DNA from: a virus
Taxonomy: Duplodnaviria > Heunggongvirae > Uroviricota > Caudoviricetes
Reading direction: 5' to 3' (one strand)
IMG/VR virus record: IMGVR_UViG_2585427784_000003
Span: 1-12,258 of that record
Length of the DNA: 12,258 nt
Shown: positions 1 through 12,258 of the stretch, piece by piece
How positions within the stretch are numbered: position 1 is the first letter of the stretch
Layout of the letters: the number at the start of each line of letters is the position of its first letter
Notes under the pieces: model-generated
Databases searched by the model: none
Seen by the model: only the letters and a program-made list of their open reading frames with translations
What the model was told of the DNA's origin: nothing
Position numbers and translations under genes: made by a program

Positions 1-1284
1 TTACTTCTTCGCCTCTGCAACCACTTTACTACCCACGCCGCGGTTATTGTATTCCCACATGCGGTTGTAGTTAGTGTCATTCAGATTGCGCTGTATTTCG
101 TCGTTATCATCTACGCTGCCGGTATTACCCGCAAACGGACGATTAGAGATCACCGCATCGGCCCACGGTTTCGCCGTGTTAAAACCTTCGTTGATGGCGC
201 TATCACGGATCACCACCTGACCGTTGGTATTGGCATCAACATCCAGCGAGCGGCCCAGTTGCGCCACACCATCACCGAAAGCATTGAAACGGCTGTTTAC
301 GGCGAGGAAACCGTAGTAAATGTTGGACAGCGTAGCCGGTGCAAACACATACGCTTCTTGCTGAGTACGTGAGTTCACCACGCGGAATTCGGTGTTATCG
401 AACACCACTGCGCCGCGACCAGAAACGATATCCACATCCCCTTCAATGTAGCTGTTGGTCACCAGCGTACGCGGCTGACGATTCGTTTCCAGACGGTTCT
501 GCACACCGCTGTTGGTGACAAAGAAGGTGTTCTGACGACCGAGAATGTTAACGTTGTTAATCTGTACCTGGTCACCATCAGTACGCAGTGCCACCGCCGG
601 ATGGTTACCTGCATCTACGCTATCGCCCAGCGTGTTTTCGATGGTCAGATTTTGCAGTTGCAGGCCATTGTTTTGTGACCAGAAGACCGCAGAGCAGAGA
701 ACACCGATACTGTCGCTGCGTTTGCTCTGGCAGCTATCGTACATATACCACGCTGGTTTACCTGGCATATATTTGCCGCGCGGGTTGACGTCGTGACGCC
801 AGTCGGCAGGGCTCATGCCACCATCAAGGGAAAGCCCAATCTTCACATCAATCGGTTTTTCACCTGTACCGTACAGAGTAATTCCACCCGGAGCGGCAGG
901 GACATATACCGTTCCCTGATACTCACCAGGCATCACGGCAATATACTGGCGCTTGTTGGTACGCTTGATAATTGCCGCATCTACCGCCGCCTGAATCGTG
1001 GTATGCGTTACACCTTGAGTGCCCGCCGGGCCGACAACAAAGTCAGGTTGCGCAGGCAGGGTAATCGGGGAAGGATTCCACGCTGCAGCACCTGGTGTCA
1101 GGGATGCAAAATAGTGTTGAGCATCGAAATTCTGCGCTTCTTTTGCCGACAGAATCGGGCGAGAAGAGGTACCAGGCGCGGTTTGATCAGAAGGACGTTG
1201 ATCGGGCGGGGTTGAGCTACAGGCGGTCAGCGTCACGCCAAAAGCCAATGCCAGCGCCAGACGGGAAACTGAAAATGTGTTCAC
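1..1284 (-). CDS. ybhC: Host pectinesterase-family outer-membrane lipoprotein (YbhC-like), complete 427 aa
   Basis: Full-length 427-aa ORF with a lipoprotein signal and lipobox (MNTFSVSRLALALAFGVTLTAC). Sequence and length match what I recall for E. coli YbhC, and it sits directly next to the lambda att core as expected for the gal-side flank of attB-lambda. No alignment was run. Confidence 0.85.
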   Translation of the reverse strand: MNTFSVSRLALALAFGVTLTACSSTPPDQRPSDQTAPGTSSRPILSAKEAQNFDAQHYFASLTPGAAAWNPSPITLPAQPDFVVGPAGTQGVTHTTIQAAVDAAIIKRTNKRQYIAVMPGEYQGTVYVPAAPGGITLYGTGEKPIDVKIGLSLDGGMSPADWRHDVNPRGKYMPGKPAWYMYDSCQSKRSDSIGVLCSAVFWSQNNGLQLQNLTIENTLGDSVDAGNHPAVALRTDGDQVQINNVNILGRQNTFFVTNSGVQNRLETNRQPRTLVTNSYIEGDVDIVSGRGAVVFDNTEFRVVNSRTQQEAYVFAPATLSNIYYGFLAVNSRFNAFGDGVAQLGRSLDVDANTNGQVVIRDSAINEGFNTAKPWADAVISNRPFAGNTGSVDDNDEIQRNLNDTNYNRMWEYNNRGVGSKVVAEAKK

Positions 1285-1330
1285 AGGTTGCTCCGGGCTA
1301 TGAAATAGAAAAATGAATCCGTTGAAGCCT

Positions 1331-1345
1331 GCTTTTTTATACTAA
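1331..1345. other. attL: attL common core (lambda O region, GCTTTTTTATACTAA)
   Basis: Exact 15-bp lambda core at 1331-1345, with host-type sequence (tgaagcct) on the ybhC side and phage P' arm sequence (gttggcattataaaaaagcattgc...) on the int side. Confidence 0.93.
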
Positions 1346-1422
1346 GTTGGCATTATAAAAAAGCATTGCTTATCAATTTGTTGCAACGAACAGGTCACTA
1401 TCAGTCAAAATAAAATCATTAT
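1346..1422. promoter_or_regulatory. attP P' arm: IHF H' site and Int arm-type sites P'1 to P'3
   Basis: An IHF-like motif (tatcaatttgttg, about 1371-1383) is followed by contiguous arm-type repeats (aggtcactat, cagtcaaaat, aaaatcattat) at about 1391-1422. The spacing to the int stop, about 81 bp from core centre, is what I recall for lambda. Confidence 0.8.
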
Positions 1423-2489
1423 TTGATTTCAATTTTGTCCCACTCCCTGCCTCTGTCATCACGATACTGTGATGCCATGGTGTCCGACTTATGCCCGAGA
1501 AGATGTTGAGCAAACTTATCGCTTATCTGCTTCTCATAGAGTCTTGCAGACAAACTGCGCAACTCGTGAAAGGTAGGCGGATCCCCTTCGAAGGAAAGAC
1601 CTGATGCTTTTCGTGCGCGCATAAAATACCTTGATACTGTGCCGGATGAAAGCGGTTCACGACGAGTAGATGCAATTATGGTTTCTCCGCCAAGAATCTC
1701 TTTGCATTTATCAAGTGTTTCCTTCATTGATATCCCGAGAGCATCAACATGCAATGTTGTTGGGATGGCAATTTTTACGCCTGTTTTGCTTTGCTCGACA
1801 TAAAGATATCCATCTACGATATCAGACCACTTCATTTCGCATAAATCACCAACTCGTTGCCCGGTAACAACAGCCAGTTCCATTGCAAGTCTGAGCCAAC
1901 ATGGTGATGATTCTGCTGCTTGATAAATTTTCAGGTATTCGTCAGCCGTAAGTCTTGATCTCCTTACCTCTGATTTTGCTGCGCGAGTGGCAGCGACAGG
2001 GTTTGTTGTTATATGGCCTTCAGCTATTGCCTCTCGGAATGCATCGCTCAGTGTTGATCTGATTAACTTGGCTGACGCCGCCTTGCCCTCGTCTATGTAT
2101 CCATTGAGCATTGCCGCAATTTCTTTTGTGGTGATGTCTTCAAGTGGAGCATCAGGCAGACCCCTCCTTATTGCTTTAATTTTGCTCATGTAATTTATGA
2201 GTGTCTTCTGCTTGATTCCTCTGCTGGCCAGGATTTTTTCGTAGCGATCAAGCCATGAATGTAACGTAACGGAATTATCACTGTTGATTCTCGCTGTCAG
2301 AGGCTTGTGTTTGTGTCCTGAAAATAACTCAATGTTGGCCTGTATGGCTTCAGTGATTGCGATTCGCCTGTCTCTGCCTAATCCAAACTCTTTACCCGTC
2401 CTTGGGTCCCTGTAGCAGTAATATCCATTGTTTCTTATATAAAGGTTAGGGGGTAAATCCCGGCGCTCATGACTTCGCCTTCTTCCCAT
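1419..2489 (-). CDS. int: Lambda integrase (tyrosine recombinase), 356 aa
   Basis: ORF translation MGRRRSHERRDLPPNLYIRNNGYYCYRDPRTGKEF...REWDKIEIK is near-identical to lambda Int as I recall it, with the same length and the same position relative to att and xis. Confidence 0.97.
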   Translation of the reverse strand: MGRRRSHERRDLPPNLYIRNNGYYCYRDPRTGKEFGLGRDRRIAITEAIQANIELFSGHKHKPLTARINSDNSVTLHSWLDRYEKILASRGIKQKTLINYMSKIKAIRRGLPDAPLEDITTKEIAAMLNGYIDEGKAASAKLIRSTLSDAFREAIAEGHITTNPVAATRAAKSEVRRSRLTADEYLKIYQAAESSPCWLRLAMELAVVTGQRVGDLCEMKWSDIVDGYLYVEQSKTGVKIAIPTTLHVDALGISMKETLDKCKEILGGETIIASTRREPLSSGTVSRYFMRARKASGLSFEGDPPTFHELRSLSARLYEKQISDKFAQHLLGHKSDTMASQYRDDRGREWDKIEIK

Positions 2490-2685
2490 TTCTGATCCTC
2501 TTCAAAAGGCTACCTGTTACTGGTCGATTTAAGTCAACCTTTACCGCTGATTCGTGGAACAGATACTCTCTTCCATCCTTAACCGGAGGAGGGAATATCC
2601 TGCACTCGCGTACCCATCGACGAACTGTTTCAAGGCTTCTTGGGCGTCGCTGGCGTGCGTTCCACTCCTGAAGTGTCAAGTACAT
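2467..2685 (-). CDS. xis: Lambda excisionase, 72 aa
   Basis: MYLTLQEWNARQRRPRSLETVRRWVRECRIFPPPVKDGREYLFHESAVKVDLNRPVTG... matches lambda Xis from memory. Its 3' end overlaps the int start by 23 nt, as in lambda. Confidence 0.95.
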   Translation of the reverse strand: MYLTLQEWNARQRRPRSLETVRRWVRECRIFPPPVKDGREYLFHESAVKVDLNRPVTGSLLKRIRNGKKAKS

Positions 2686-2712
2686 CGCAAAGTCTCCGCA
2701 ATTACACGCAAG

Positions 2713-2732
2713 AAAAAACCGCCATCAGGCGG
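2713..2732 (-). terminator. Small GC hairpin plus U6 on the minus strand (intrinsic-terminator-like), overlapping the orf55 stop
   Basis: Minus strand reads g-ccgcc-tgat-ggcgg-tttttt: a 5-bp GC stem, 4-nt loop and six U. The stem is short, so function is uncertain. Confidence 0.3.
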
Positions 2733-2892
2733 CTTGGTGTTCTTTCAGTTCTTCAATTCGAATATTGGTTACGTCTGCATGTGCTATCTGCGCCCACAGC
2801 ATCCAGTGGTCATAGCAGTCGCTGATGTTCTCGGCTTCGATAACTCTGTTGAATGGTTCTCCATTCCATTCACCTGTGACTCGGAAGTGCAT
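2725..2892 (-). CDS. Lambda orf55-like small hypothetical protein, 55 aa (below the ORF-track length cutoff)
   Basis: Hand translation of the minus strand gives MHFRVTGEWNGEPFNRVIEAENISDCYDHWMLWAQIAHADVTNIRIEELKEHQAA then a stop. This matches my recollection of the small lambda ORF just upstream of xis in the pL operon. Confidence 0.6.
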   Translation of the reverse strand: MHFRVTGEWNGEPFNRVIEAENISDCYDHWMLWAQIAHADVTNIRIEELKEHQAA

Positions 2893-2942
2893 TTATCATC
2901 TCCAAAAAACAAACCCCGCCGTAGCGAGTTCAGATAAAAGAA

Positions 2943-2962
2943 ATCCTCGTCAGTGCGAGGAT
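2943..2962 (-). terminator. Hairpin (7-bp stem atcctcg/cgaggat) followed on the minus strand by a U-rich tract
   Basis: Perfect inverted repeat at 2943-2949 and 2956-2962. The minus strand continues ttcttttatctg. It lies at the boundary of the replaced ea8.5/ea22 slot. Confidence 0.25.
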
Positions 2963-3134
2963 GCTGTTCATTGCTGCTATACACTTTTTTGCTCTCAACG
3001 TAAGCGGTAGCCCATTCTGTTGGGTTGGTGCAGTTGCTTTTAGGAAATGCTATTTACCCCTTAAATGTCGGCTGAAAGAGCTAAAATCCATGCAAAAAAT
3101 TTACGCAATTTTGTGTATTATTGTGCAGTAAGTA

Positions 3135-3737
3135 ATGAGCTATTTTCTGCGCAAAAAATGGATGGTAAATTTGTCCGGGTCAGGAAAAATTTTATGGGCG
3201 CTAAACATGAAAAAAGATTCGTATCCTTATTTGATTTGCATGACAGTTTCAGGGCTGATCTTTATTTTCCTTTTCTTCTGGTGGCGGGCAGATATCTACA
3301 GGGTCACGTTTCTTAATCAGAGTATATCCCACTATTACATTCTGTTTAGCATGGGAATAGCTTTTCTGTTATCTCTGTTTTGGGTTAAGAAGGGGATAGT
3401 AAAACAAAGAGGCTGGAAGAGTCTGTCAGCATACCTTAAGGTTTATGCAGGGATGTGCATATTTGCTGGATTTTTTCTGATTATACCCCTTACGACACTA
3501 ACTTATTTTTTGCCTGGAGAGACATCGTCTTATGTTGCACCGTATCGGTATACTTCCGGTAGTTCAAAAAGTTGTTCTGGAGCTGAGGTGGATGACCCCG
3601 ATCTACATGAGAATATTCGCATTTGCTATCCGTATCGCAATTATGAGTACGATAATATTATCTATGTTGAAAAGAAAATTAATATATTAGGTGCGGTAGT
3701 GACATATGCACAGACCGCGCGTGATGATACTGAATGA
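3135..3737 (+). CDS. Cargo (moron) gene: integral membrane protein with three predicted TM helices and a ~70-aa soluble C-terminus; function unknown
   Basis: 200-aa ORF on the strand opposite to the pL operon, in visibly AT-rich DNA. Hydrophobic segments are LICMTVSGLIFIFLFFWW, YYILFSMGIAFLLSLFWV and VYAGMCIFAGFFLIIPLTTLTYF. Alternative in-frame starts lie at 3162 and 3207; none has a strong ribosome-binding site, so the start is uncertain. Confidence 0.5.
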   Translation: MSYFLRKKWMVNLSGSGKILWALNMKKDSYPYLICMTVSGLIFIFLFFWWRADIYRVTFLNQSISHYYILFSMGIAFLLSLFWVKKGIVKQRGWKSLSAYLKVYAGMCIFAGFFLIIPLTTLTYFLPGETSSYVAPYRYTSGSSKSCSGAEVDDPDLHENIRICYPYRNYEYDNIIYVEKKINILGAVVTYAQTARDDTE

Positions 3738-3773
3738 TATAGTATATAGCGGGCAAGTTTTAGTTAATTTATC

Positions 3774-3795
3774 GAGGTAATATAATTTACCTCGA
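3774..3795 (+). terminator. Hairpin downstream of the membrane-protein gene (8-bp stem cgaggtaa/ttacctcg, 6-nt loop)
   Basis: Perfect 8-bp inverted repeat about 37 bp after the stop at 3737. There is no clean U-run after it, so this is only a candidate terminator. Confidence 0.3.
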
Positions 3796-3947
3796 CTCGT
3801 TTGTTCTGGTATTAATATTTCGCTTTACGACCGATTTTTATCTGATGATATCATGCGGTTTTCATATACTGACTTACTGTCTTTTCTCCGTTAGCGATTT
3901 TCTCCTGCTCAGCGATGATTTTATCTTTGGCTTCTAGTTAATTTCGC

Positions 3948-4169
3948 TCACTTCGAACCTCTCTGTTTACTGATAAGCTCCAGATCCTCCTGGCAACTTG
4001 CACAAGTCCGACAACCCTGAACGACCAGGCGTCTTCGTTCATCTATCGGATCGCCACACTCACAACAATGAGTGGCAGATATAGCCTGGTGGTTCAGGCG
4101 GCGCATTTTTATTGCTGTGTTGCGCTGTAATTCTTCAATTTCTGATGCTGAATCAATGATGTCTGCCAT
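3948..4169 (-). CDS. orf73: Lambda exo-xis region Orf73: TraR/DksA-family C4 zinc-finger protein
   Basis: 73-aa ORF with the four-cysteine motif CCECGDPIDERRRLVVQGCRTCASC. Position and size fit lambda orf73, a TraR homologue. Confidence 0.8.
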   Translation of the reverse strand: MADIIDSASEIEELQRNTAIKMRRLNHQAISATHCCECGDPIDERRRLVVQGCRTCASCQEDLELISKQRGSK

Positions 4170-4223
4170 CTTCCATTAATCCCTGAATTGTTGGTTAATA
4201 CGCTTGAGGGTGAATGCGAATAA

Positions 4224-4246
4224 TAAAAAAGGAGCCTGTAGCTCCC
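4224..4246 (-). terminator. Intrinsic-terminator-like hairpin on the minus strand between orf61-like and orf73
   Basis: Minus strand reads (g)ggagc-tacag-gctcc(t) followed by ttttttatta. It starts about 20 bp after the orf61-like stop. Confidence 0.45.
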
Positions 4247-4267
4247 TGATGATTTTGCTTTTCATGT

Positions 4268-4579
4268 TCATCGTTCCTTAAAGACGCCGTTTAACATGCC
4301 GATTGCCAGGCTTAAATGAGTCGGTGTGAATCCCATCAGCGTTACCGTTTCGCGGTGCTTCTTCAGTACGCTACGGCAAATGTCATCGACGTTTTTATCC
4401 GGAAACTGCTGTCTGGCTTTTTTGATTTCAGAATTAGCCTGACGGGCAATGCTGCGAAGGGCGTTTTCCTGCTGAGGTGTCATTGAACAAGTCCCATGTC
4501 GGCAAGCATAAGCACACAGAATATGAAGCCCGCTGCCAGAAAAATGCATTCCGTGGTTGTCATACCTGGTCTCTCTCAT
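4268..4579 (-). CDS. orf61: Lambda orf61-like exo-xis protein (longest ORF 103 aa; an internal start at 4483 would give 71 aa)
   Basis: Its start overlaps the orf63 stop by 20 nt, which I recall as the lambda orf61/orf63 arrangement. The ORF is longer than the 61 aa I remember for lambda orf61; cause unknown. Confidence 0.5.
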   Translation of the reverse strand: MRETRYDNHGMHFSGSGLHILCAYACRHGTCSMTPQQENALRSIARQANSEIKKARQQFPDKNVDDICRSVLKKHRETVTLMGFTPTHLSLAIGMLNGVFKER

Positions 4580-4751
4580 CTGCTTCTGCTTTCGCCACCA
4601 TCATTTCCAGCTTTTGTGAAAGGGATGCGGCTAACGTATGAAATTCTTCGTCTGTTTCTACTGGTATTGGCACAAACCTGACTCCAATTTGAGCGAGGCT
4701 ATGTGCCATCTCGATACTCGTTCTTAACTCAACGGGAGATGCTTTGTGCAT
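4560..4751 (-). CDS. orf63: Lambda exo-xis region Orf63, 63 aa
   Basis: 63-aa ORF ([37 protein letters not shown]...) at the expected place between orf60a and orf61. Confidence 0.75.
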   Translation of the reverse strand: MHKASPVELRTSIEMAHSLAQIGVRFVPIPVETDEEFHTLAASLSQKLEMMVAKAEADERDQV

Positions 4752-4906
4752 ACAGCTCCCCGTTTATTATTTATCTCCTCAGCCAGCCGCTGTGCTTTCA
4801 GGGGATTTCGGATAACAGAAAGGCCGGGAAATACCCAGCCTCGCTTCGTAACGGAGTAGACGAAAGTGATCGTGCCTACGCGGATATTATCGTGAGGATG
4901 TTTCAT
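4724..4906 (-). CDS. orf60a: Lambda exo-xis region Orf60a, 60 aa
   Basis: [60 protein letters not shown]. The start codon overlaps the exo stop by 4 nt, as in lambda. The ORF track begins two codons earlier, at 4912. Confidence 0.8.
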
Positions 4907-5583
4907 CGCCATTGCTCCCCAAATACAAAACCAATTTCAGCCAGTGCCTCGTCCATTTTTTCGATGAACTCCGGCACCATCTCGTCAAAACTCGCTATAT
5001 ACTTTTCATTCCGCTCAATCACGACATAATGAAGGCCTTCACGCTTCATACGCGGGTCATAGTTGGCAAAGTACCAGGCATCTTTTCGCGTCACCCACAT
5101 GCTGTACTGCACCTGGGCCATGTAAGCCGACTTTATGGCCTCGAAACCACCGAGCCGGAATTTCATGAAATCCCGGGAGGTAAACGGGTATTTCAGCTCA
5201 AGGCCATTGCCGTCACTGCATAAACCATCGGGAGAGCAGGCGGTGCGCATACTTTCGTCGCGATAGATGATCGGGGATTCAATAACATTTACGCCGGAAG
5301 TGAACTCAAACAGGGTTCTGGCGTCGTTCTCGTACTGTTTTCCCCAGGCCAGCGCTTTAGCGTTAACTTCCGGAGCCACACCGGTGCAAACCTCAGCTAG
5401 CAGGGTGTGGAAGTAGGACATTTTCATGTCAGGCCACTTCTTTCCTGATCGGGGCTTTGCTATCACGTTGTGAACTTCTGAAGCGGTGATGACGCCGAGC
5501 CGTAATTTGTGCCATGCATCATCCCCCTGTTCGACAGCTCTCACGTCGATCCCGGTACGCTGCAGGATAATGTCCGGTGTCAT
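4903..5583 (-). CDS. exo: Lambda exonuclease (Red-alpha), 226 aa
   Basis: [65 protein letters not shown]...[11 protein letters not shown] is near-identical to lambda Exo from memory. Confidence 0.97.
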
Positions 5584-5684
5584 GCTGCCACCTTCTGCTC
5601 AGTGGCTTTCTGTTTCAGGAATCCAAGAGCTTTCACTGCTTCGGCCTGTGTCAGTTCTGACGATGCGCGAATGTCGCGGCGAAA
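5580..5684 (-). pseudogene. bet: 3' remnant of bet (Red-beta): only the last ~34 codons, no start codon
   Basis: The minus-strand frame ending in the ATGA overlap with exo reads ...[34 protein letters not shown] then a stop, matching the lambda Bet C-terminus. Upstream the frame reaches a stop at about 5724 with no ATG, and homology ends at about 5684. Confidence 0.85.
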
Positions 5685-5906
5685 TACCAGAACATGCGGG
5701 CCAATGCGCTTACTGATGCGGAATTACGGCGCAAGGCTGCCGATGAACTGACTTGTATGACCGCGCGAATTAACCGTGGTGAGGCGATACCTGAACCAGT
5801 AAAACAACTTCCTGTCATGGGCGGTAGACCTCTAAATCGTGCACAGGCTCTGGCGAAGATCGCAGAAATCAAAGCGAAGTTCGGACTGAAAGGAGCAACT
5901 GTATGA
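5685..5906 (+). pseudogene. P: 3' remnant of replication gene P (C-terminal ~74 codons); an ATG at 5694 gives a 70-aa ORF
   Basis: Plus-strand frame reads YQNMRANALTDAELRRKAADELTCMTARINRGEAIPEPVKQLPVMGGRPLNRAQALAKIAEIKAKFGLKGATV then a stop, matching the lambda P C-terminus from memory. It begins directly at the bet junction, and the stop overlaps the ren start. Confidence 0.85.
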
Positions 5907-6184
5907 CGGGCAAAGAGGTAATTATTCATTATCTGGAGACGCACAAGAGCTTCTGTGCGCAGGACGTTGCTGCGGCAACAGGTGTGACAGTAACCTGCAT
6001 AAATCAGGCAGCAGCTAAAATGGCGCGGGCAGGAATCCTGGTCATTGATGGTAAGGTCTGGCGAACGGTGTATTACCGGTTCGCTACCAGAGAAGAACGG
6101 GAAGGAAAGGTGAGCACGAACCTGATTTTTAAGGAGTGTCGCCAGAGTGCCGCGATGAAGCGGGTGTTGGCGGTATATGGGTGA
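5903..6184 (+). CDS. ren: Lambda Ren protein, 93 aa
   Basis: MTGKEVIIHYLETHKSFCAQDVAAATGVTVTCINQAAAKMARAGILVIDGKVWRTVYYRFATREEREGKVSTNLIFKECRQSAAMKRVLAVYG matches lambda Ren from memory. Ribosome-binding site aaggag lies upstream, and the start overlaps the P stop (ATGA). Confidence 0.85.
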   Translation: MTGKEVIIHYLETHKSFCAQDVAAATGVTVTCINQAAAKMARAGILVIDGKVWRTVYYRFATREEREGKVSTNLIFKECRQSAAMKRVLAVYG

Positions 6185-6479
6185 TTAGTTATTACTTGAT
6201 TTGATGGTTATCTCGAAAACATCCAATCAAATTTAATGGTTTGCTTTGTGCGGGGAACTATAACAATGTTTCTAGCTTGGTGCTGTATGTATTAGTGAAT
6301 TAGTAGGGAATATATCCACACATTGATTAACACAAAAATATTTTAGATATTAAATGTAACTCAAAGGTTGAGTAATAATGGTTGTGTAGCGTATAACAGG
6401 ATGCTGAGGTAGTATTAAACAATGAATAAATCTGATTGACAAGCACCAGATAATACTGCGGGTCAATCATTAGACATGA

Positions 6480-6512
6480 ACGCCACTAGTTACTGAGAGT
6501 AACTAATGGCGT
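6480..6512. repeat. Near-perfect 15-bp inverted repeat (acgccactagttact / agtaactaatggcgt, one mismatch, 3-nt loop) in the AT-rich spacer
   Basis: Read directly from the sequence. It lies about 45 bp beyond the 3' end of the HD-domain gene and about 300 bp after ren. It may be a terminator or a protein-binding site. Confidence 0.3.
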
Positions 6513-6554
6513 TGTGTTTATAGTTAAGATGTTTTTTAAAACATCAGGGGGGCT

Positions 6555-8102
6555 CTACTTGTCTTTTTTAATATGATCAATCTCATCATTAAGACATTTA
6601 TCTATTTTTTTTATTAACACATTAATTTCTTCGGTGTTTTGGAGTTGAGTTGTCTTAGAAACAAAAACTCGAATAAAGAATTTAACATAGTGATAGGGTT
6701 GAAGTACATCGTTATACTTACATAAATCATTTATTGTATACTTGCCGCCTGTTTCTTTTTTTATTATTTTAGCTTGACTTGTATCGATATCTTTAAAGTT
6801 ATCTTCAATCTGAAAATCAAGAACCCATTCATCTCCTTTTAAATTATCCTCAATGATTTTGTTGATTTTCTTAGATATATTTTGTTTATATTCTTTGTAT
6901 CTGTTGTCGGAAATGTTAACATTAGAAAACGTGTGTTTTTTTTCATATATTTTTTTCCAAACATTTCTATCAACAATATCTTGAATTATAGCTTGAGAAT
7001 TTTTATCTAATGTGTTTTTAAGAGTGTTTTCTAAAAACGTTTTGTCTGGGTTTTCACGATAAAAGTGTTTGATGGACTCAATGAGAGTGTTTTTAGATTT
7101 TAAAGAGACAACATCATCAGTTTTTTTTCTAGAACACGCTTTGTTAAGCATCGCAGATAGTGCACGATTGGTCTTATGAAAATAAACTTGACTATAAAGC
7201 CCACTTCTTGCATTGGCAAATTCTAGTATTGAATCCATACCACTTTCTTTATATGCCAGGTAAACACTATTTTCAACTTTCACAGGAATAAATGACATTA
7301 ATAATCGTCCATAATCATAAATCCCATATTTAACGCCGGAGAAGTAGCTATCTCTAAGTAGGTAGTCCATTCTGTCCGCATCTATAGGTGAAGATGATAT
7401 GATTGAACCTAATAAAGGATATACATTTACTCCCTCAATGTTATTTTTAAAATCATATCTTTTATCAACAATTTTTATAATGCTTTCTGGATTAATAGCC
7501 GCTATGTTTTCTTTATAGACATCGTCGTCATTTGATTTATCTTGGGCTTCATTTTTTAATTCTTCAATAATTTCTTTAATAAAAATACATGATACTTGTT
7601 CGTGGGTTAACTTGTCATTATCACTTAAAGATATAATCTTATCGTATTGTTTATTTCCTTCAGTTTTGCATTTTTCTTTGAAATCTTTTACGGATATTGC
7701 AAAACTATCGAATTGGTGGGCAAGTGGGCCATGCCCAACATCGTGTAACAATGCTGCAATACGTAACTCCTGTATAAGACTTGAAGGCATTTTTTTTATA
7801 TCTAAATATAGATCAATGCCCATATTTTTTCGATTGTAAATTAGTGCATTTATATCAATATTTTTTAATATTTCATACGATAAATGCATTACACCGACAG
7901 AGTGTTCAAAGCGAGAGTGCATTGCAGAAGGAAATACTTTATATAGAAACGTGTTCTGCCTGATATCTCGTAGTCGTTGGAATAAAGGATGGTCAATTAT
8001 CTTTTTTTCTAGCTTAGTTATTCGAATCACTCCATGTATGGGATCTAAAAACTTCCCCAGAAGTAAGTCTTCAAAGTTCTCAAGTTTGTTTTTGTTTGTC
8101 AT
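6555..8102 (-). CDS. HD-domain dNTP triphosphohydrolase-like protein (SAMHD1/dGTPase family) with a long K/N/D-rich C-terminal extension, 515 aa
   Basis: Motifs seen in the translation: PLFQRLRDIRQ...HSRFEHSVGV, LLHDVGHGPLAH and DADRMDYLLRD, the metal-binding H...HD...D set of SAMHD1/Dgt-type enzymes. Ribosome-binding site aaggaaa precedes the ATG at 8102. The gene is visibly AT-rich. Confidence 0.85.
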   Translation of the reverse strand: MTNKNKLENFEDLLLGKFLDPIHGVIRITKLEKKIIDHPLFQRLRDIRQNTFLYKVFPSAMHSRFEHSVGVMHLSYEILKNIDINALIYNRKNMGIDLYLDIKKMPSSLIQELRIAALLHDVGHGPLAHQFDSFAISVKDFKEKCKTEGNKQYDKIISLSDNDKLTHEQVSCIFIKEIIEELKNEAQDKSNDDDVYKENIAAINPESIIKIVDKRYDFKNNIEGVNVYPLLGSIISSSPIDADRMDYLLRDSYFSGVKYGIYDYGRLLMSFIPVKVENSVYLAYKESGMDSILEFANARSGLYSQVYFHKTNRALSAMLNKACSRKKTDDVVSLKSKNTLIESIKHFYRENPDKTFLENTLKNTLDKNSQAIIQDIVDRNVWKKIYEKKHTFSNVNISDNRYKEYKQNISKKINKIIEDNLKGDEWVLDFQIEDNFKDIDTSQAKIIKKETGGKYTINDLCKYNDVLQPYHYVKFFIRVFVSKTTQLQNTEEINVLIKKIDKCLNDEIDHIKKDK

Positions 8103-8163
8103 GAGGCTTTCCTTTTGCTGTAGTTATAATACGAAATTTAAATAGTAATGATGTTTATAGTTT

Positions 8164-8192
8164 CAATGTGTTATCTAATGGTTAACACATTG
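8164..8192. promoter_or_regulatory. Perfect 10-bp inverted repeat (caatgtgtta, 9-bp spacer, taacacattg) about 60 bp upstream of the HD-domain gene start; candidate operator
   Basis: Perfect palindrome arms read directly. No U-run follows on either strand, so a protein-binding site is more likely than a terminator. Confidence 0.3.
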
Positions 8193-8460
8193 TGATGTAG
8201 CATATCAATATGGATTCATATGTTCAATTGGTCTGTGGAGTTTAGTTATGAATAAGATTGATTCTGGTAATACTTTGTAGTTTAAGCTAGAGGCGGGATT
8301 CGTGATGTTCAAATCAGTATGTAATGGAGGTTGTGCATTAGTACTTGCTGCTGGAAATTAAAAATAAAGTTGCAAGTAATCGACGTTTTCCGAGAGGAGG
8401 ATGTAGCATCGCTGACCAAAAAGTATCAACGATGCCTGTTTTGTTTTAACTACAAATTAA

Positions 8461-9804
8461 TTAAATTGCATCTGCAAACTCTGGGATTTTTCGCTCAAGT
8501 ATGATTGATGAGTTGCTGTTGTCGCTTTTTTTATTTTCATGATTACGAATAGCCAATGACTCATTAAAGTCTTTTGCGACTGCTGTCTCAATAAATTCAA
8601 TTTCTGAATCAGAGTGTTTTTTAACAGCTTCTTTGATCTCATCCAGAGTAACATAGAAAAACTCTTTTCTACGATTTACAAGATTGACTCTCTTTTTATC
8701 GAAGACATCATGTAGTTTTTTTTCTAATGATGGAGCGTCCTCCGAATAAATCATGGCATGCACATCAAAAATAAAAGGAACAGATGCATCACCAAGCTCA
8801 TTTACACGGTCTTGTGGATCAAGACGTCGTGTCATGCCTATTTTATAAACATTCTCCCCAAAAGAACCTATGTTCGAAATAATATAAACATGACCTTGTT
8901 TGGTTTGTTGTGCCATGGATAATGCTCTTTGATGCTTTGATTCAGCCTGCGACAAACTCTGTTCTAGTTCGGCAATGCGATTTTCGAGGCGCTGCTTCAT
9001 GTCACCAGTAACTTTTTCCATTTCCTTTCTTGCAGCTTCAATTGCTTTTTTATAACGGCGCTCTTCTGCCTCTGCGTCTTGCATGGCCTTTTCTATTTCT
9101 CGTTGTGCACGCTCCTCCTCTCTCATTTGTGCCCTTATTTCTGCCTGTTCTTCTTTTTCTTTCTGTTTTTGCTCACGATATTCATGGGTAAGCCACAACT
9201 CCTCAAGTTTTTTATTAAGGTATTTAGTATTTATATATATGTGATTTTGCTCGTTTAGTTTATTTATGGCCTCAAATGCCTTTGTGATGCGTTCTTCCAT
9301 TTTAGTGATATTTTTCCACGTGCAATTACTAATTGCAGCATCACATTCATTATTAAATGCTCTAGTAGTTAGCCTAATATTTCTGTCTGTCATTTTTTTA
9401 CCCTCTGCTCGAGAGCCTTCAACAGTCCATTGGGTTGTGCAATATACTGCACCAGAGTGGGTTTTATCCCGCAGCATTAATTTCTGTTCATCCCTGATGG
9501 ATTTTATTTTGTTTTTAAATTGCTCTGAATCTTCAAAATTAAAATGAGGTTCGTAAAATCCTAGTTCGGCTAGTTCAACATCTTCTGAATAAATAGAAAT
9601 TTGCTTTACTAGCTTATCATATATTTCTTTCTTCTCTTTATAAGTTCTTCTTAGTTCTTGGATTTGTTTATTGATACCATCCATTTTTTCAATGGTGTTT
9701 GTTAGTTCATTATTGGCATTTTCTTTTACTTTTTGGGACTCTTCTTTTATAATGGAGTATTCTTGCTCTGTTTTCTCAATAAGCTTCTTACATTCCTCTT
9801 CCAC
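8461..9804 (-). CDS. DUF4041 plus T5orf172 (GIY-YIG-like) protein with a central coiled coil, 447 aa as called; it probably begins upstream at 9964 (see frameshift finding)
   Basis: DUF4041-like block (...GFYEPHFNFEDSEQFKNKIKSIRDEQKLMLRDKTHSGAVYCTTQWTVEGSRAEGKKMTDRNIRLTTRAFNNECDAAISNCTWKN...), then an E/K/R/Q-rich coiled coil, then a T5orf172-like block (GHVYIISNIGSFGENVYKIGMTRRLDPQDRVNELGDASVPFIFDVHAMIYSEDAPSLEKKLHDVFDKKRVNLVNRRKEFFYV). The called start is a GTG with no ribosome-binding site. Confidence 0.85.
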   Translation of the reverse strand: MEEECKKLIEKTEQEYSIIKEESQKVKENANNELTNTIEKMDGINKQIQELRRTYKEKKEIYDKLVKQISIYSEDVELAELGFYEPHFNFEDSEQFKNKIKSIRDEQKLMLRDKTHSGAVYCTTQWTVEGSRAEGKKMTDRNIRLTTRAFNNECDAAISNCTWKNITKMEERITKAFEAINKLNEQNHIYINTKYLNKKLEELWLTHEYREQKQKEKEEQAEIRAQMREEERAQREIEKAMQDAEAEERRYKKAIEAARKEMEKVTGDMKQRLENRIAELEQSLSQAESKHQRALSMAQQTKQGHVYIISNIGSFGENVYKIGMTRRLDPQDRVNELGDASVPFIFDVHAMIYSEDAPSLEKKLHDVFDKKRVNLVNRRKEFFYVTLDEIKEAVKKHSDSEIEFIETAVAKDFNESLAIRNHENKKSDNSNSSIILERKIPEFADAI

Positions 9805-9856
9805 ATTAAAATAATCTGCAAAGCGAGATTTGTATTCTTCATTTTTTTGATTGCTA

Positions 9857-9964
9857 TCACTTAATTCTAATTGTATTTTTTTTGATGCGTTTGATTGCAG
9901 CTATATATAGAACAAGAACAACCAATAAAAATATGATTGCAAGTAATAGTGGAGTTTGAGTCAT
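9857..9964 (-). CDS. 35-aa ORF encoding a single transmembrane helix (MTQTPLLLAIIFLLVVLVLYIAAIKRIKKNTIRIK); probably the displaced N-terminus of the DUF4041 gene
   Basis: ATG at 9964 is preceded by aagga with about 9-nt spacing. The ORF ends 53 bp before the GTG of the 447-aa ORF, and the two frames differ by one nucleotide across an A8 run (coding strand; T8 at 9876-9883 on plus). Confidence 0.45.
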   Translation of the reverse strand: MTQTPLLLAIIFLLVVLVLYIAAIKRIKKNTIRIK

Positions 9965-10390
9965 TCGTGCTATTCCTTACGGACAATTTAAGACGTTTTG
10001 TATTAAATCCTGTTCAATGTGTATGCGGGTGATTGCTACCGCTTACAATCTTCATAATTATCAGTTAGATAGACTCGCTAGTAAATAATTTCATTTTTTG
10101 CAATATTCTTATTGAATATTTCAATTTATGAAATGAGCTCTTTATCCTTTCAAGGCGAAAGGTTTCTTCTTCGGAAATATTTGCTCTCGTGTGACGTATA
10201 AAGGCCTTTGATTTTTAAAAAACAGTAGGAAATAATATAGTTACTGTCGGCCTGAACACCCGGCGGTGGGGTTGCGCTAAACGGGGACGTTTATGCGCAC
10301 ATACAATCTAAACTCTCTTCTCCCTTCACAGATGCAGAAATGCACCTGCGATTTTTTGCATCCAACGTTTGACCTCTGCGGAGGTGAAGC

Positions 10391-10846
10391 ATGAACCTAC
10401 CACAAGATGGCATCAAATTACATCGTGGCAACTTCACCGCTATCGGCCAGCAGATCCAGCCTTATCTGGAGGACGGAAAATGCTTTCGCATGGTGCTTAA
10501 ACCGTGGCGTGAGAAACGCAGTCTTTCCCAGAGTGCACTCAGCCACATGTGGTACAGCGAAATCAGTGAATACCTTATCAGCAGGGGTAAAACGTTCGCC
10601 ACTCCAGCTTGGGTAAAAGATGCTCTCAAACACACATATCTCGGTTATGAAACCAAAGACCTGGTTGATGTCGTAACCGGTGATATCACCACTATCCAGT
10701 CGTTACGCCATACCTCCGACCTTGATACCGGAGAGATGTATGTCTTCCTGTGTAAGGTTGAAGCCTGGGCGATGAATATTGGCTGCCACCTGACTATTCC
10801 GCAGAGCTGCGAGTTCCAGCTGCTGCGTGATAAGCAGGAGGCGTAA
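10391..10846 (+). CDS. ybcN: DLP12-type nin-region protein YbcN, 151 aa
   Basis: [67 protein letters not shown]... matches E. coli YbcN from memory. Ribosome-binding site ggaggtg lies upstream. Confidence 0.88.
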
Positions 10847-11016
10847 TGGCTACACCGCTTATTCGTGTCATGAACGGACACATCTACAAAATACCAAATC
10901 GTCGTAAGCGTAGGCCTGAGCTGAAACCATCCGAAATACCAACACTGCTCGGATATACCGCCAGCCTGGTTGATAAAAAATGGTTGCGACTGGCAGCAAG
11001 GAGGAATCATGGCTGA
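10846..11016 (+). CDS. ninE: NinE, 56 aa (below the ORF-track length cutoff)
   Basis: Hand translation: [56 protein letters not shown]. The start overlaps the ybcN stop (TAATG). Confidence 0.8.
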   Translation: MATPLIRVMNGHIYKIPNRRKRRPELKPSEIPTLLGYTASLVDKKWLRLAARRNHG

Positions 11017-11299
11017 TTTGAGAAAAGCAGCGCGTGGTCGGGAATGCCAGGTAAGAATCCCTGGCGTATGTAATGGCAATCCTGAAACGTCTGTACTGGC
11101 ACATATCCGGCTGGCTGGATTGTGCGGTACCGGTATCAAACCGCCAGACCTGATTGCCACCATTGCATGTTCTGCCTGTCACGACGAGATCGACCGTCGC
11201 ACGCATTTTGTTGACGCTGGATATGCAAAAGAATGCGCGCTGGAAGGTATGGCGAGAACGCAGGTTATCTGGCTGAAAGAGGGGGTAATTAAGGCGTGA
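11009..11299 (+). CDS. ybcO: DLP12-type YbcO (putative nuclease), 96 aa from the ATG at 11009
   Basis: [96 protein letters not shown], preceded by aggagg. The ORF track starts earlier, at 10970. Confidence 0.85.
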
Positions 11300-11658
11300 A
11301 TACCTACAATATCACATTACCCTGGCCGCCGAGCAATAATCGCTATTACCGCCATAATCGCGGGCGCACGCACATCAGCGCAGAGGGGCAGGCATACCGC
11401 GAAAACGTCGCCCGAATCATTAAAAACGCAATGCTGGATATCGGCCTGGCTATGCCTGTGAAAATCCGCATTGAGTGTCACATGCCGGATCGCCGTCGCC
11501 GTGACCTGGATAATCTACAAAAGGCCGCTTTTGACGCACTCACCAAAGCAGGTTTCTGGTTGGATGATGCTCAGGTCGTTGATTACCGCGTTGTGAAGAT
11601 GCCGGTTGTCAAAGGTGGAAAGCTGGAACTGACCATCACTGAACAGGGAGATGAATGA
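11296..11658 (+). CDS. rusA: Holliday-junction resolvase RusA, 120 aa
   Basis: [95 protein letters not shown]... matches E. coli RusA from memory. Confidence 0.95.
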
Positions 11659-11795
11659 TGTTTGAGTTTTATATGGCAGAACTTCTTCGCCACCGCTGGA
11701 TGCGCCTGCGCTTATATCGTTTCCCCGGTTCTGTTTTGACCGATTACCGAATACTGAAGAATTACGCCAAAACACTGACAGGAGCAGGAGTATGA
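11655..11795 (+). CDS. ylcG: Small nin-region protein YlcG, 46 aa (below the ORF-track length cutoff)
   Basis: Hand translation: [46 protein letters not shown]. The start overlaps the rusA stop (ATGA). Confidence 0.7.
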
Positions 11796-11880
11796 AGTCA
11801 GAGATAACAATCAACTAATACTGTTTTGTTGATTTTTGCTTGTAATTGGCGTTCTGGTCTGAGTTTTGTGGAGTAAGTTG

Positions 11881-12258
11881 ATGCGTGATATTCAGATGGT
11901 TCTTGAGCGTTGGGGAGCGTGGGCGGCTAATAATCATGAAGATGTGACCTGGTCGTCCATTGCCGCCGGTTTTAAGGGATTAATTCCTTCAAAAGTAAAA
12001 TCTCGCCCACAATGTTGTGACGATGACGCGATGATCATTTGCGGGTGCATGGCCCGTCTGAAAAAGAACAACAGCGATTTGCATGATTTATTGGTGGACT
12101 ATTATGTCGGCGGCATGACTTTTATGGCGCTTGCACGTAAGCATGGGCGATCTGATTGTTGGGTTGGCAGGATGCTCCAGAAAGCTGAGGGCGTAGTGGA
12201 GGGTATGCTGATGGTGTTGGATCTCCGATTGGAGATGGATGCTGATTGTTCGAAATAA
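11881..12258 (+). CDS. quuD: Late-gene antiterminator Q (DLP12 QuuD-like), 125 aa from the ATG at 11881
   Basis: [75 protein letters not shown]... matches DLP12-type Q from memory. Ribosome-binding site ggag lies 7 nt upstream, and the stop codon is the last three bases of the window. Confidence 0.8.

Follow-up and report, generated by a model that had tools for sequence, protein, structure and literature searches.

PD-lambda-1 was recovered by functional selection against lambda-vir (Vassallo et al. 2022, Nat Microbiol, PMC9519451) and was renamed SNIPE when its mechanism was worked out (Saxton et al. 2026, Nature, PMC13190303). A copy of this anti-phage gene carrying a one-nucleotide frameshift is described here. 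It lies at positions 8461–9964 of a 12,258-nucleotide (nt) stretch of viral DNA, positions 1–12,258 of IMG/VR record IMGVR_UViG_2585427784_000003, referred to below as the window. An A8 tract replaces the A7 tract of intact alleles, and the membrane anchor and the nuclease body are encoded in different frames. The locus is read with good confidence as a frameshifted SNIPE copy, probably a recent pseudogene in a defective lambdoid prophage, that would have lost its function.

PD-lambda-1 originates from E. coli ECOR26 (contig QOXL01000020, 49060–50562), where the gene is 1503 nt in length. The cloned fragment (48998–50844, 1.85 kb) holds the gene with only 62 and 282 nt of flank, and this single gene gives defence. 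The published HHsearch table places DUF4041 at residues 197–252 and T5orf172 at residues 357–448 (PMC9519451). SNIPE is a single-pass inner-membrane protein with a periplasmic N-terminus and cytoplasmic DUF4041 and GIY-YIG domains. Modelling places its N-terminal region in association with the ManYZ permease, the entry route of lambda. Binding to DNA is promoted by DUF4041, which probably also contacts the tape measure protein of siphoviruses, and mutations in this domain give stronger binding to the phage Bas14 tape measure protein. Phage DNA is cleaved during injection, plasmid transformation is not blocked, and the action is direct defence, not abortive infection. Defence is abolished by E414A and likewise by deletion of DUF4041. 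SNIPE without its transmembrane (TM) helix is highly toxic, localizes to the nucleoid and causes double-strand breaks in host DNA (PMC13190303). The importance of the system is that self and non-self are told apart by location, with a membrane-tethered nuclease cutting only entering DNA.

Three-frame translation of the window locus revealed two frames and more than one open reading frame (ORF) in 1504 nt, a length indivisible by three (Table 1). The frame opening at ATG 9964 runs for 35 codons to a TGA at 9859–9857, and two stops follow the encoded peptide. The long ORF uses another frame, which is open from 9900. No single uninterrupted ORF joins anchor, DUF4041 and nuclease, and the locus consists of a 35-codon ORF and a separate 447-codon ORF. 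The shift is located after codon 29, where the window has one extra A relative to the intact gene for WP_074500416.1. Deleting one A from the A8 tract yields a 500-residue protein whose sole difference from WP_074500416.1 is C69Y. The 447-amino-acid (aa) product of the downstream ORF is on record in NCBI as KEN15152.1/WP_248700034.1.

Translation signals were inspected in the upstream sequence. A Shine-Dalgarno (SD)-like AAGGA was found only 5′ of ATG 9964; GTG 9804 and the first in-frame ATG (9684) both lack such a motif. A promoter/terminator scan of 8100–10450 returned 9 sites against 7.7 ± 3.0 in shuffled sequences, which is no excess; the single weak candidate lies on the minus strand at 10085–10057.

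Table 1. Features of the window, in window coordinates. Residue numbers refer to the frame-corrected SNIPE protein.
Feature	Position	Strand	Remarks
SNIPE/PD-lambda-1 frameshifted allele, whole locus	8461–9964	-	1504 nt; intact gene 1503 nt, 500 aa
5′ fragment ORF, 35-residue peptide MTQTPLLLAIIFLLVVLVLYIAAIKRIKKNTIRIK followed by TGA	9857–9964	-	Holds the transmembrane anchor
Main ORF from first GTG	8461–9804	-	447 codons; SNIPE residues 54–500, anchor missing
Homopolymer tract with +1 frameshift	9876–9883	-	A8 on coding strand (T8 on + strand); A7 in intact alleles
Transmembrane helix, residues 5–24, PLLLAIIFLLVVLVLYIAAI	9893–9952	-	Kyte-Doolittle 19-residue maximum 3.37
DUF4041 (PF13250) core, residues 198–252	9208–9372	-	Pfam E=1.2e-19; coordinates checked by translation
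T5orf172/GIY-YIG nuclease (PF10544), residues 357–449	8617–8895	-	Pfam E=6.9e-17
Catalytic Glu414 codon GAA	8722–8724	-	Residue present in corrected translation
HD-domain gene, 515 aa, SAMHD1-like dNTPase homologue (predicted)	6555–8102	-	Pfam HD 1.2e-6; outside the SNIPE system
ybhC (pectinesterase family)	1–1284	-	
Integrase	1419–2489	-	Then excisionase, then several small lambdoid genes
Predicted multi-pass membrane protein, 200 aa	3135–3737	+	Between xis and DksA/TraR-type zinc-finger gene
YqaJ-type exonuclease (exo)	4903–5583	-	
Replication gene P, last 70 codons	5694–5906	+	
ren-like gene, left edge of cargo hotspot	5903–6184	+	phrog_142, Ren-like exclusion protein, 1.3e-40
ybcN/ninB	10391–10846		Right edge of cargo hotspot; then ybcO, rusA, Q

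Domain and profile matches were computed on the frame-corrected protein, with one A removed. The PADLOC model PD-Lambda-1 (PDLC03976) was matched with 658 bits, protein residues 1–485 aligning to positions 1–485 of the 491-position model. In Pfam, DUF4041 scored 70 bits against a cut-off of 27, and MUG113 (PF13455), a member of the same GIY-YIG clan as the T5orf172 match, was detected at E=7e-19. Positions of DUF4041 and T5orf172 agree with the values in the Vassallo table. Residues 5–24 form the only hydrophobic segment by Kyte-Doolittle analysis. A tblastn search of phage genomes identified a coding sequence of phage PhiR26_1, annotated 'PD-lambda-1', that is identical to the corrected protein at 495 of 500 residues. 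All nine residues mutated by Saxton et al. (E414, W257, E223, L253, E264, K305, I308, T319, and N250) are kept with the same numbering. In RefSeq, proteins identical or nearly identical to it are named 'SNIPE associated domain-containing protein', and PF13250 now has 'SNIPE' as its precomputed Pfam label. A sequence search of solved structures with SNIPE gave nothing significant (best E=0.08, coiled-coil noise), and NCBIfam gave sub-threshold coiled-coil matches only. Judged by these comparisons, the gene is SNIPE/PD-lambda-1, already named and mechanistically explained, and no new system. As a separate observation, the Glu414 codon is directly followed by an A8 run (GAA AAA AAA; coding nt 1241–1248, window about 8722–8715), which is the longest homopolymer of the intact gene and is unaltered in the copies whose sequence was read.

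A preliminary description of this DNA, made from the sequence without database searches, had treated 8461–9964 as one protein. That reading joined two frames and overlooked the A8 frameshift, and a single ORF was rejected on the three-frame translation. The same description had proposed a DUF4041-like region at about residues 80–200, a charged coiled coil at about 200–295 and a C-terminal T5orf172/GIY-YIG fold. Both Pfam domains that it named were detected, and the PADLOC check that it suggested returned PD-Lambda-1 at 2e-198. DUF4041 is present with a different boundary, at residues 198–252, and the long charged helix is real but lies at about residues 255–350. The nuclease fold was recovered with all of its motifs (GHVYIISN, YKIGMT, DPQDR, and EFFYV). 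The N-terminal TM helix, central to the mechanism, was absent from the proposed domain order. The suggestion that the architecture might be undescribed did not hold, as it is that of PD-lambda-1 (2022) and SNIPE (2026) and is labelled in PADLOC, Pfam and RefSeq. The proposal of a single-gene defence nuclease in prophage cargo is right for the family, but the window copy is frameshifted and probably non-working.

The window matches contig JORW01000034.1 of GCA_000713395.1 at 100% identity. A8 was found in all eight loci encoding the 447-aa product (two NCBI assemblies, five Logan assemblies of sequencing runs, and one ENA assembly), with zero mismatches to the window over 1504 nt. The exact 447-aa product is recorded on 9–14 contigs. 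The frameshift and its reproducibility are observed directly. A survey of 5426 complete Escherichia coli genomes identified 130 that hold the SNIPE region. The exact window allele across the A tract occurs in none of these 130 genomes, and the best matches among them are exactly the one-base gap away from it.

A loss of function is proposed for this copy. According to the literature, membrane tethering in intact SNIPE keeps the nuclease off the chromosome, and the C-terminal GIY-YIG domain, through E414, cuts phage DNA during injection. The A7 to A8 insertion after codon 29 uncouples the anchor, now a 35-residue peptide, from the body that carries DUF4041 and the nuclease. The locus probably yields this membrane peptide, with little or nothing made from the ORF downstream. 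Little or no SNIPE is probably made, because the anchor is uncoupled and the downstream ORF lacks a recognisable ribosome-binding site. A small amount of downstream product would also fit the published toxicity of untethered SNIPE, since a lineage rich in the anchorless form should not persist. Locus 8461–9964 is a SNIPE allele by descent and probably not a functional member of the family.

Other SNIPE copies are also disrupted. In a second allele lineage, distinguished by 27 nt, SNIPE lies in a ren-SNIPE-Rha context without the HD-domain gene that neighbours it in the window. Within this lineage, E. coli MS 85-1 has the same A7 to A8 change, and in SCU-313 the first two A7 tracts have both become A8. 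HH45 and 23AR0806 have a common 1-nt deletion in an A5 run and encode identical split proteins; OZ547223 probably has the same HH45-type deletion, judged from its annotation. In Evo1 (with CP137705) and in TB354, the insertion sequence IS1 is inserted in SNIPE at two different positions. The 90% protein cluster includes variants with frameshift-like C-terminal changes. Disruption affects 6 of the 21 HD-linked SNIPE copies; of the copies without HD, which were checked at the 5′ end only, just two were found disrupted. The intact gene contains five A runs of at least seven, compared to 2.5 ± 1.4 in codon shuffles (p ~0.09). Two A7 runs in the first 125 nt occurred in 1.6% of codon shuffles, in a post-hoc test. 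Overall, the pattern suggests an accessory gene that decays recurrently and in the ordinary way at mutable sites, and not a designed switch, with SNIPE copies repeatedly inactivated by homopolymer indels and by IS1.

The HD-domain gene lies on the same strand as SNIPE. A phmmer search of the PDB matched its product to the Aquifex protein 2hek (4.6e-30), EF1143 (2o6i; 6.1e-27) and, over residues 19–430, SAMHD1 (2.5e-26), and it is predicted to be a homologue within the SAMHD1-like HD dNTPase superfamily. The label 'dNTPase-like' given in the preliminary description was reasonable in light of the Pfam HD match and these SAMHD1-like structures. The protein falls below the dGTPase models (PADLOC dGTPase E=0.0025, 15 bits; TIGR01353 21 bits against a cut-off of 152). 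No further ORF of at least 60 aa was found in the gaps flanking the gene. At about 8405, in the intergenic region between HD and SNIPE, the window is one base shorter than its relative L001, which has a more complete prophage. The HD gene is present in 21 of the 5426 complete E. coli genomes, beside SNIPE in every case and in the ren-ninB hotspot. SNIPE is found without it in about 109 of the 130 complete genomes and in PhiR26_1. SNIPE is independent of the HD gene, because most SNIPE genomes, PhiR26_1 and the published clone all lack it. Whether the two genes act together or independently had been left open earlier; SNIPE works alone, and the HD gene as a part of the system did not survive the evidence of the clone and the roughly 109 of 130 genomes. 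The HD gene is a candidate stand-alone defence gene. The window thereby points to a predicted SAMHD1-like dNTPase whose occurrence in complete E. coli genomes is confined to the prophage hotspot of SNIPE.

Alternative explanations were weighed against a frameshifted, non-working SNIPE copy. It is very unlikely that the gene is intact and working and that the extra A is a sequencing or assembly error. The one-base difference does lie inside an A run, a classic site of error, and another single-base indel relative to L001 lies close by in the intergenic region; however, A8 recurs without mismatch in eight loci that include metagenome-type Logan contigs and a second NCBI assembly, and the 447-aa product is already on 9–14 contigs. 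Eight loci from separate assemblies share this A8, which makes a one-off assembly error very unlikely, and sequencing error was rejected as the principal explanation. It is unlikely that the A8 allele still partly defends through RNA-polymerase or ribosome slippage, or that the run is a reversible phase-variation switch. Slippage on A runs is known in E. coli, mostly where at least nine As stand in a row. In the second lineage (MS 85-1 and SCU-313), an extra A arose independently at the tract that is A8 in the window, and the two A7 runs in the first 125 nt, rare in the post-hoc test on codon shuffles, also favour a switch. Conversely, A8 is rare (2 of the 130 complete genomes), A runs of at least seven are not significantly above expectation, the second +1 in SCU-313 leaves the frame unrestored, and frameshifts elsewhere in the gene together with IS1 insertions point to ordinary decay. 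Designed phase variation was kept only at low probability, given the rarity of A8, the A-run content and the disruptions elsewhere. A broader proposal is distinctly unlikely: that the 5′ poly-A of SNIPE is a mutational or transcriptional switch with A8, present here and independently in the second lineage, as its reversible OFF or low state. The same holds for a related idea, that the HD dNTPase homologue interacts functionally with SNIPE, which is suggested by the disruption of 6 among the 21 HD-linked copies in complete genomes. If the switch were real, slippage would give a trickle of full-length nuclease, a protein that is dangerous untethered.

A single defence system made up of two genes, the HD dNTPase-like gene and the one for the DUF4041-nuclease, is highly improbable. 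The two are adjacent on one strand, 358 nt apart in a single AT-rich island, and the HD gene occurs only next to SNIPE in complete E. coli genomes (21 of 21). Against this, SNIPE alone on the 1.85-kb fragment defends, SNIPE occurs with no HD gene in PhiR26_1 and in about 109 of 130 genomes, and the 358-nt gap suggests separate transcription. The HD gene also falls to 89% identity in five genomes where the whole island is at about 95%, which suggests separate histories. The two-gene system was rejected on this distribution and on the published single-gene clone. A selfish T5orf172/GIY-YIG phage homing endonuclease, with no role in defence, is scarcely credible here. Phage homing endonucleases can carry T5orf172 domains (PMC10448857), but a full-length PD-Lambda-1 match with a TM helix and DUF4041 is unlike their architecture, and a 99%-identical protein has experimentally shown defence. 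Several points do weigh against a non-working SNIPE copy. Low-level reinitiation at GTG 9804 may occur, and transcriptional or ribosomal slippage on A8 may give some full-length protein. Several samples carry the allele, a persistence that either neutrality or residual function could explain. Logan run SRR1186674 could share its isolate with the NCBI assembly, so the truly independent observations of A8 may number fewer than eight. Identity to the studied ECOR26 protein RCP76574.1 is drawn from PhiR26_1, the nine residues and the profile match.

A lambdoid prophage inserted beside ybhC houses the SNIPE copy in its ren-to-ninB cargo hotspot. The island of HD and SNIPE is AT-rich, with 27–40% GC content compared to about 50% in the flanks. 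Homology to L001 starts at window position 5685 (L001 3486), inside P. In the window, exo is almost directly joined to the P remnant, and bet, gam, N, cI (repressor), cro, and O are absent. Since homology to L001 begins only inside P, the stretch between exo and P has been deleted. The prophage is defective, with immunity and replication genes lost. A second AT-rich patch (38–41% GC) contains the predicted membrane protein gene at 3135–3737. Its product has no Pfam or PADLOC match and only a match of its C-terminal 88 residues to phrog_1416, of unknown function. It may be another prophage cargo gene.

The window provides a natural allele in which the SNIPE anchor is genetically uncoupled from the nuclease. 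It also carries a lesson for annotation: behind 447-aa 'DUF4041 protein' entries such as KEN15152.1 lies a frameshifted SNIPE gene that has been read in truncated form. Four N-terminally truncated entries were noted, KEN15152.1/WP_248700034.1, WP_000348712.1, WP_250187344.1, and WP_225090597.1, at 447, 407, 466, and 432 aa. These are downstream fragments of frameshifted SNIPE genes, listed as ordinary proteins and better flagged as pseudogenes.

Compared to anti-phage dNTPases (dGTPase, Tal et al. 2022; Clover CloA, PMC12265719), the HD-domain protein has the same HD phosphohydrolase fold with an H...HD...D motif. Unlike in Clover, its gene has no adjacent nucleotidyltransferase partner, and its neighbours are ren and SNIPE. 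The closest islands to that of the window are those encoding WP_074500416.1 in E. coli 2018-11-3CC and about 15 other complete genomes, which are 99.8% identical over 4.2 kb and have the same gene order, ren-HD-SNIPE-ybcN. In these islands SNIPE is intact (A7, 500 aa) and the prophage retains cI, cro, O, and P, whereas the window copy is frameshifted and carries C69Y, and its prophage has lost the exo-to-P region. SNIPE of ECOR26 and PhiR26_1 (PV340555) is likewise 500 aa and 99% identical to the window protein once corrected, with the same order of TM helix, DUF4041 and GIY-YIG, with E414 and all residues named in the paper, and in the ren-to-ninB region of a lambdoid prophage. The window protein differs from PhiR26_1 PD-lambda-1 by five substitutions, C69Y, L77Q, R120K, P489L, and T493I. 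PhiR26_1 has the gene order P-ren-SNIPE-Rha-...-ybcN and lacks the HD-domain gene that lies between ren and SNIPE in the window. After codon 29 the window has A8 where PhiR26_1 has A7, and its anchor is thereby split off from the nuclease body.

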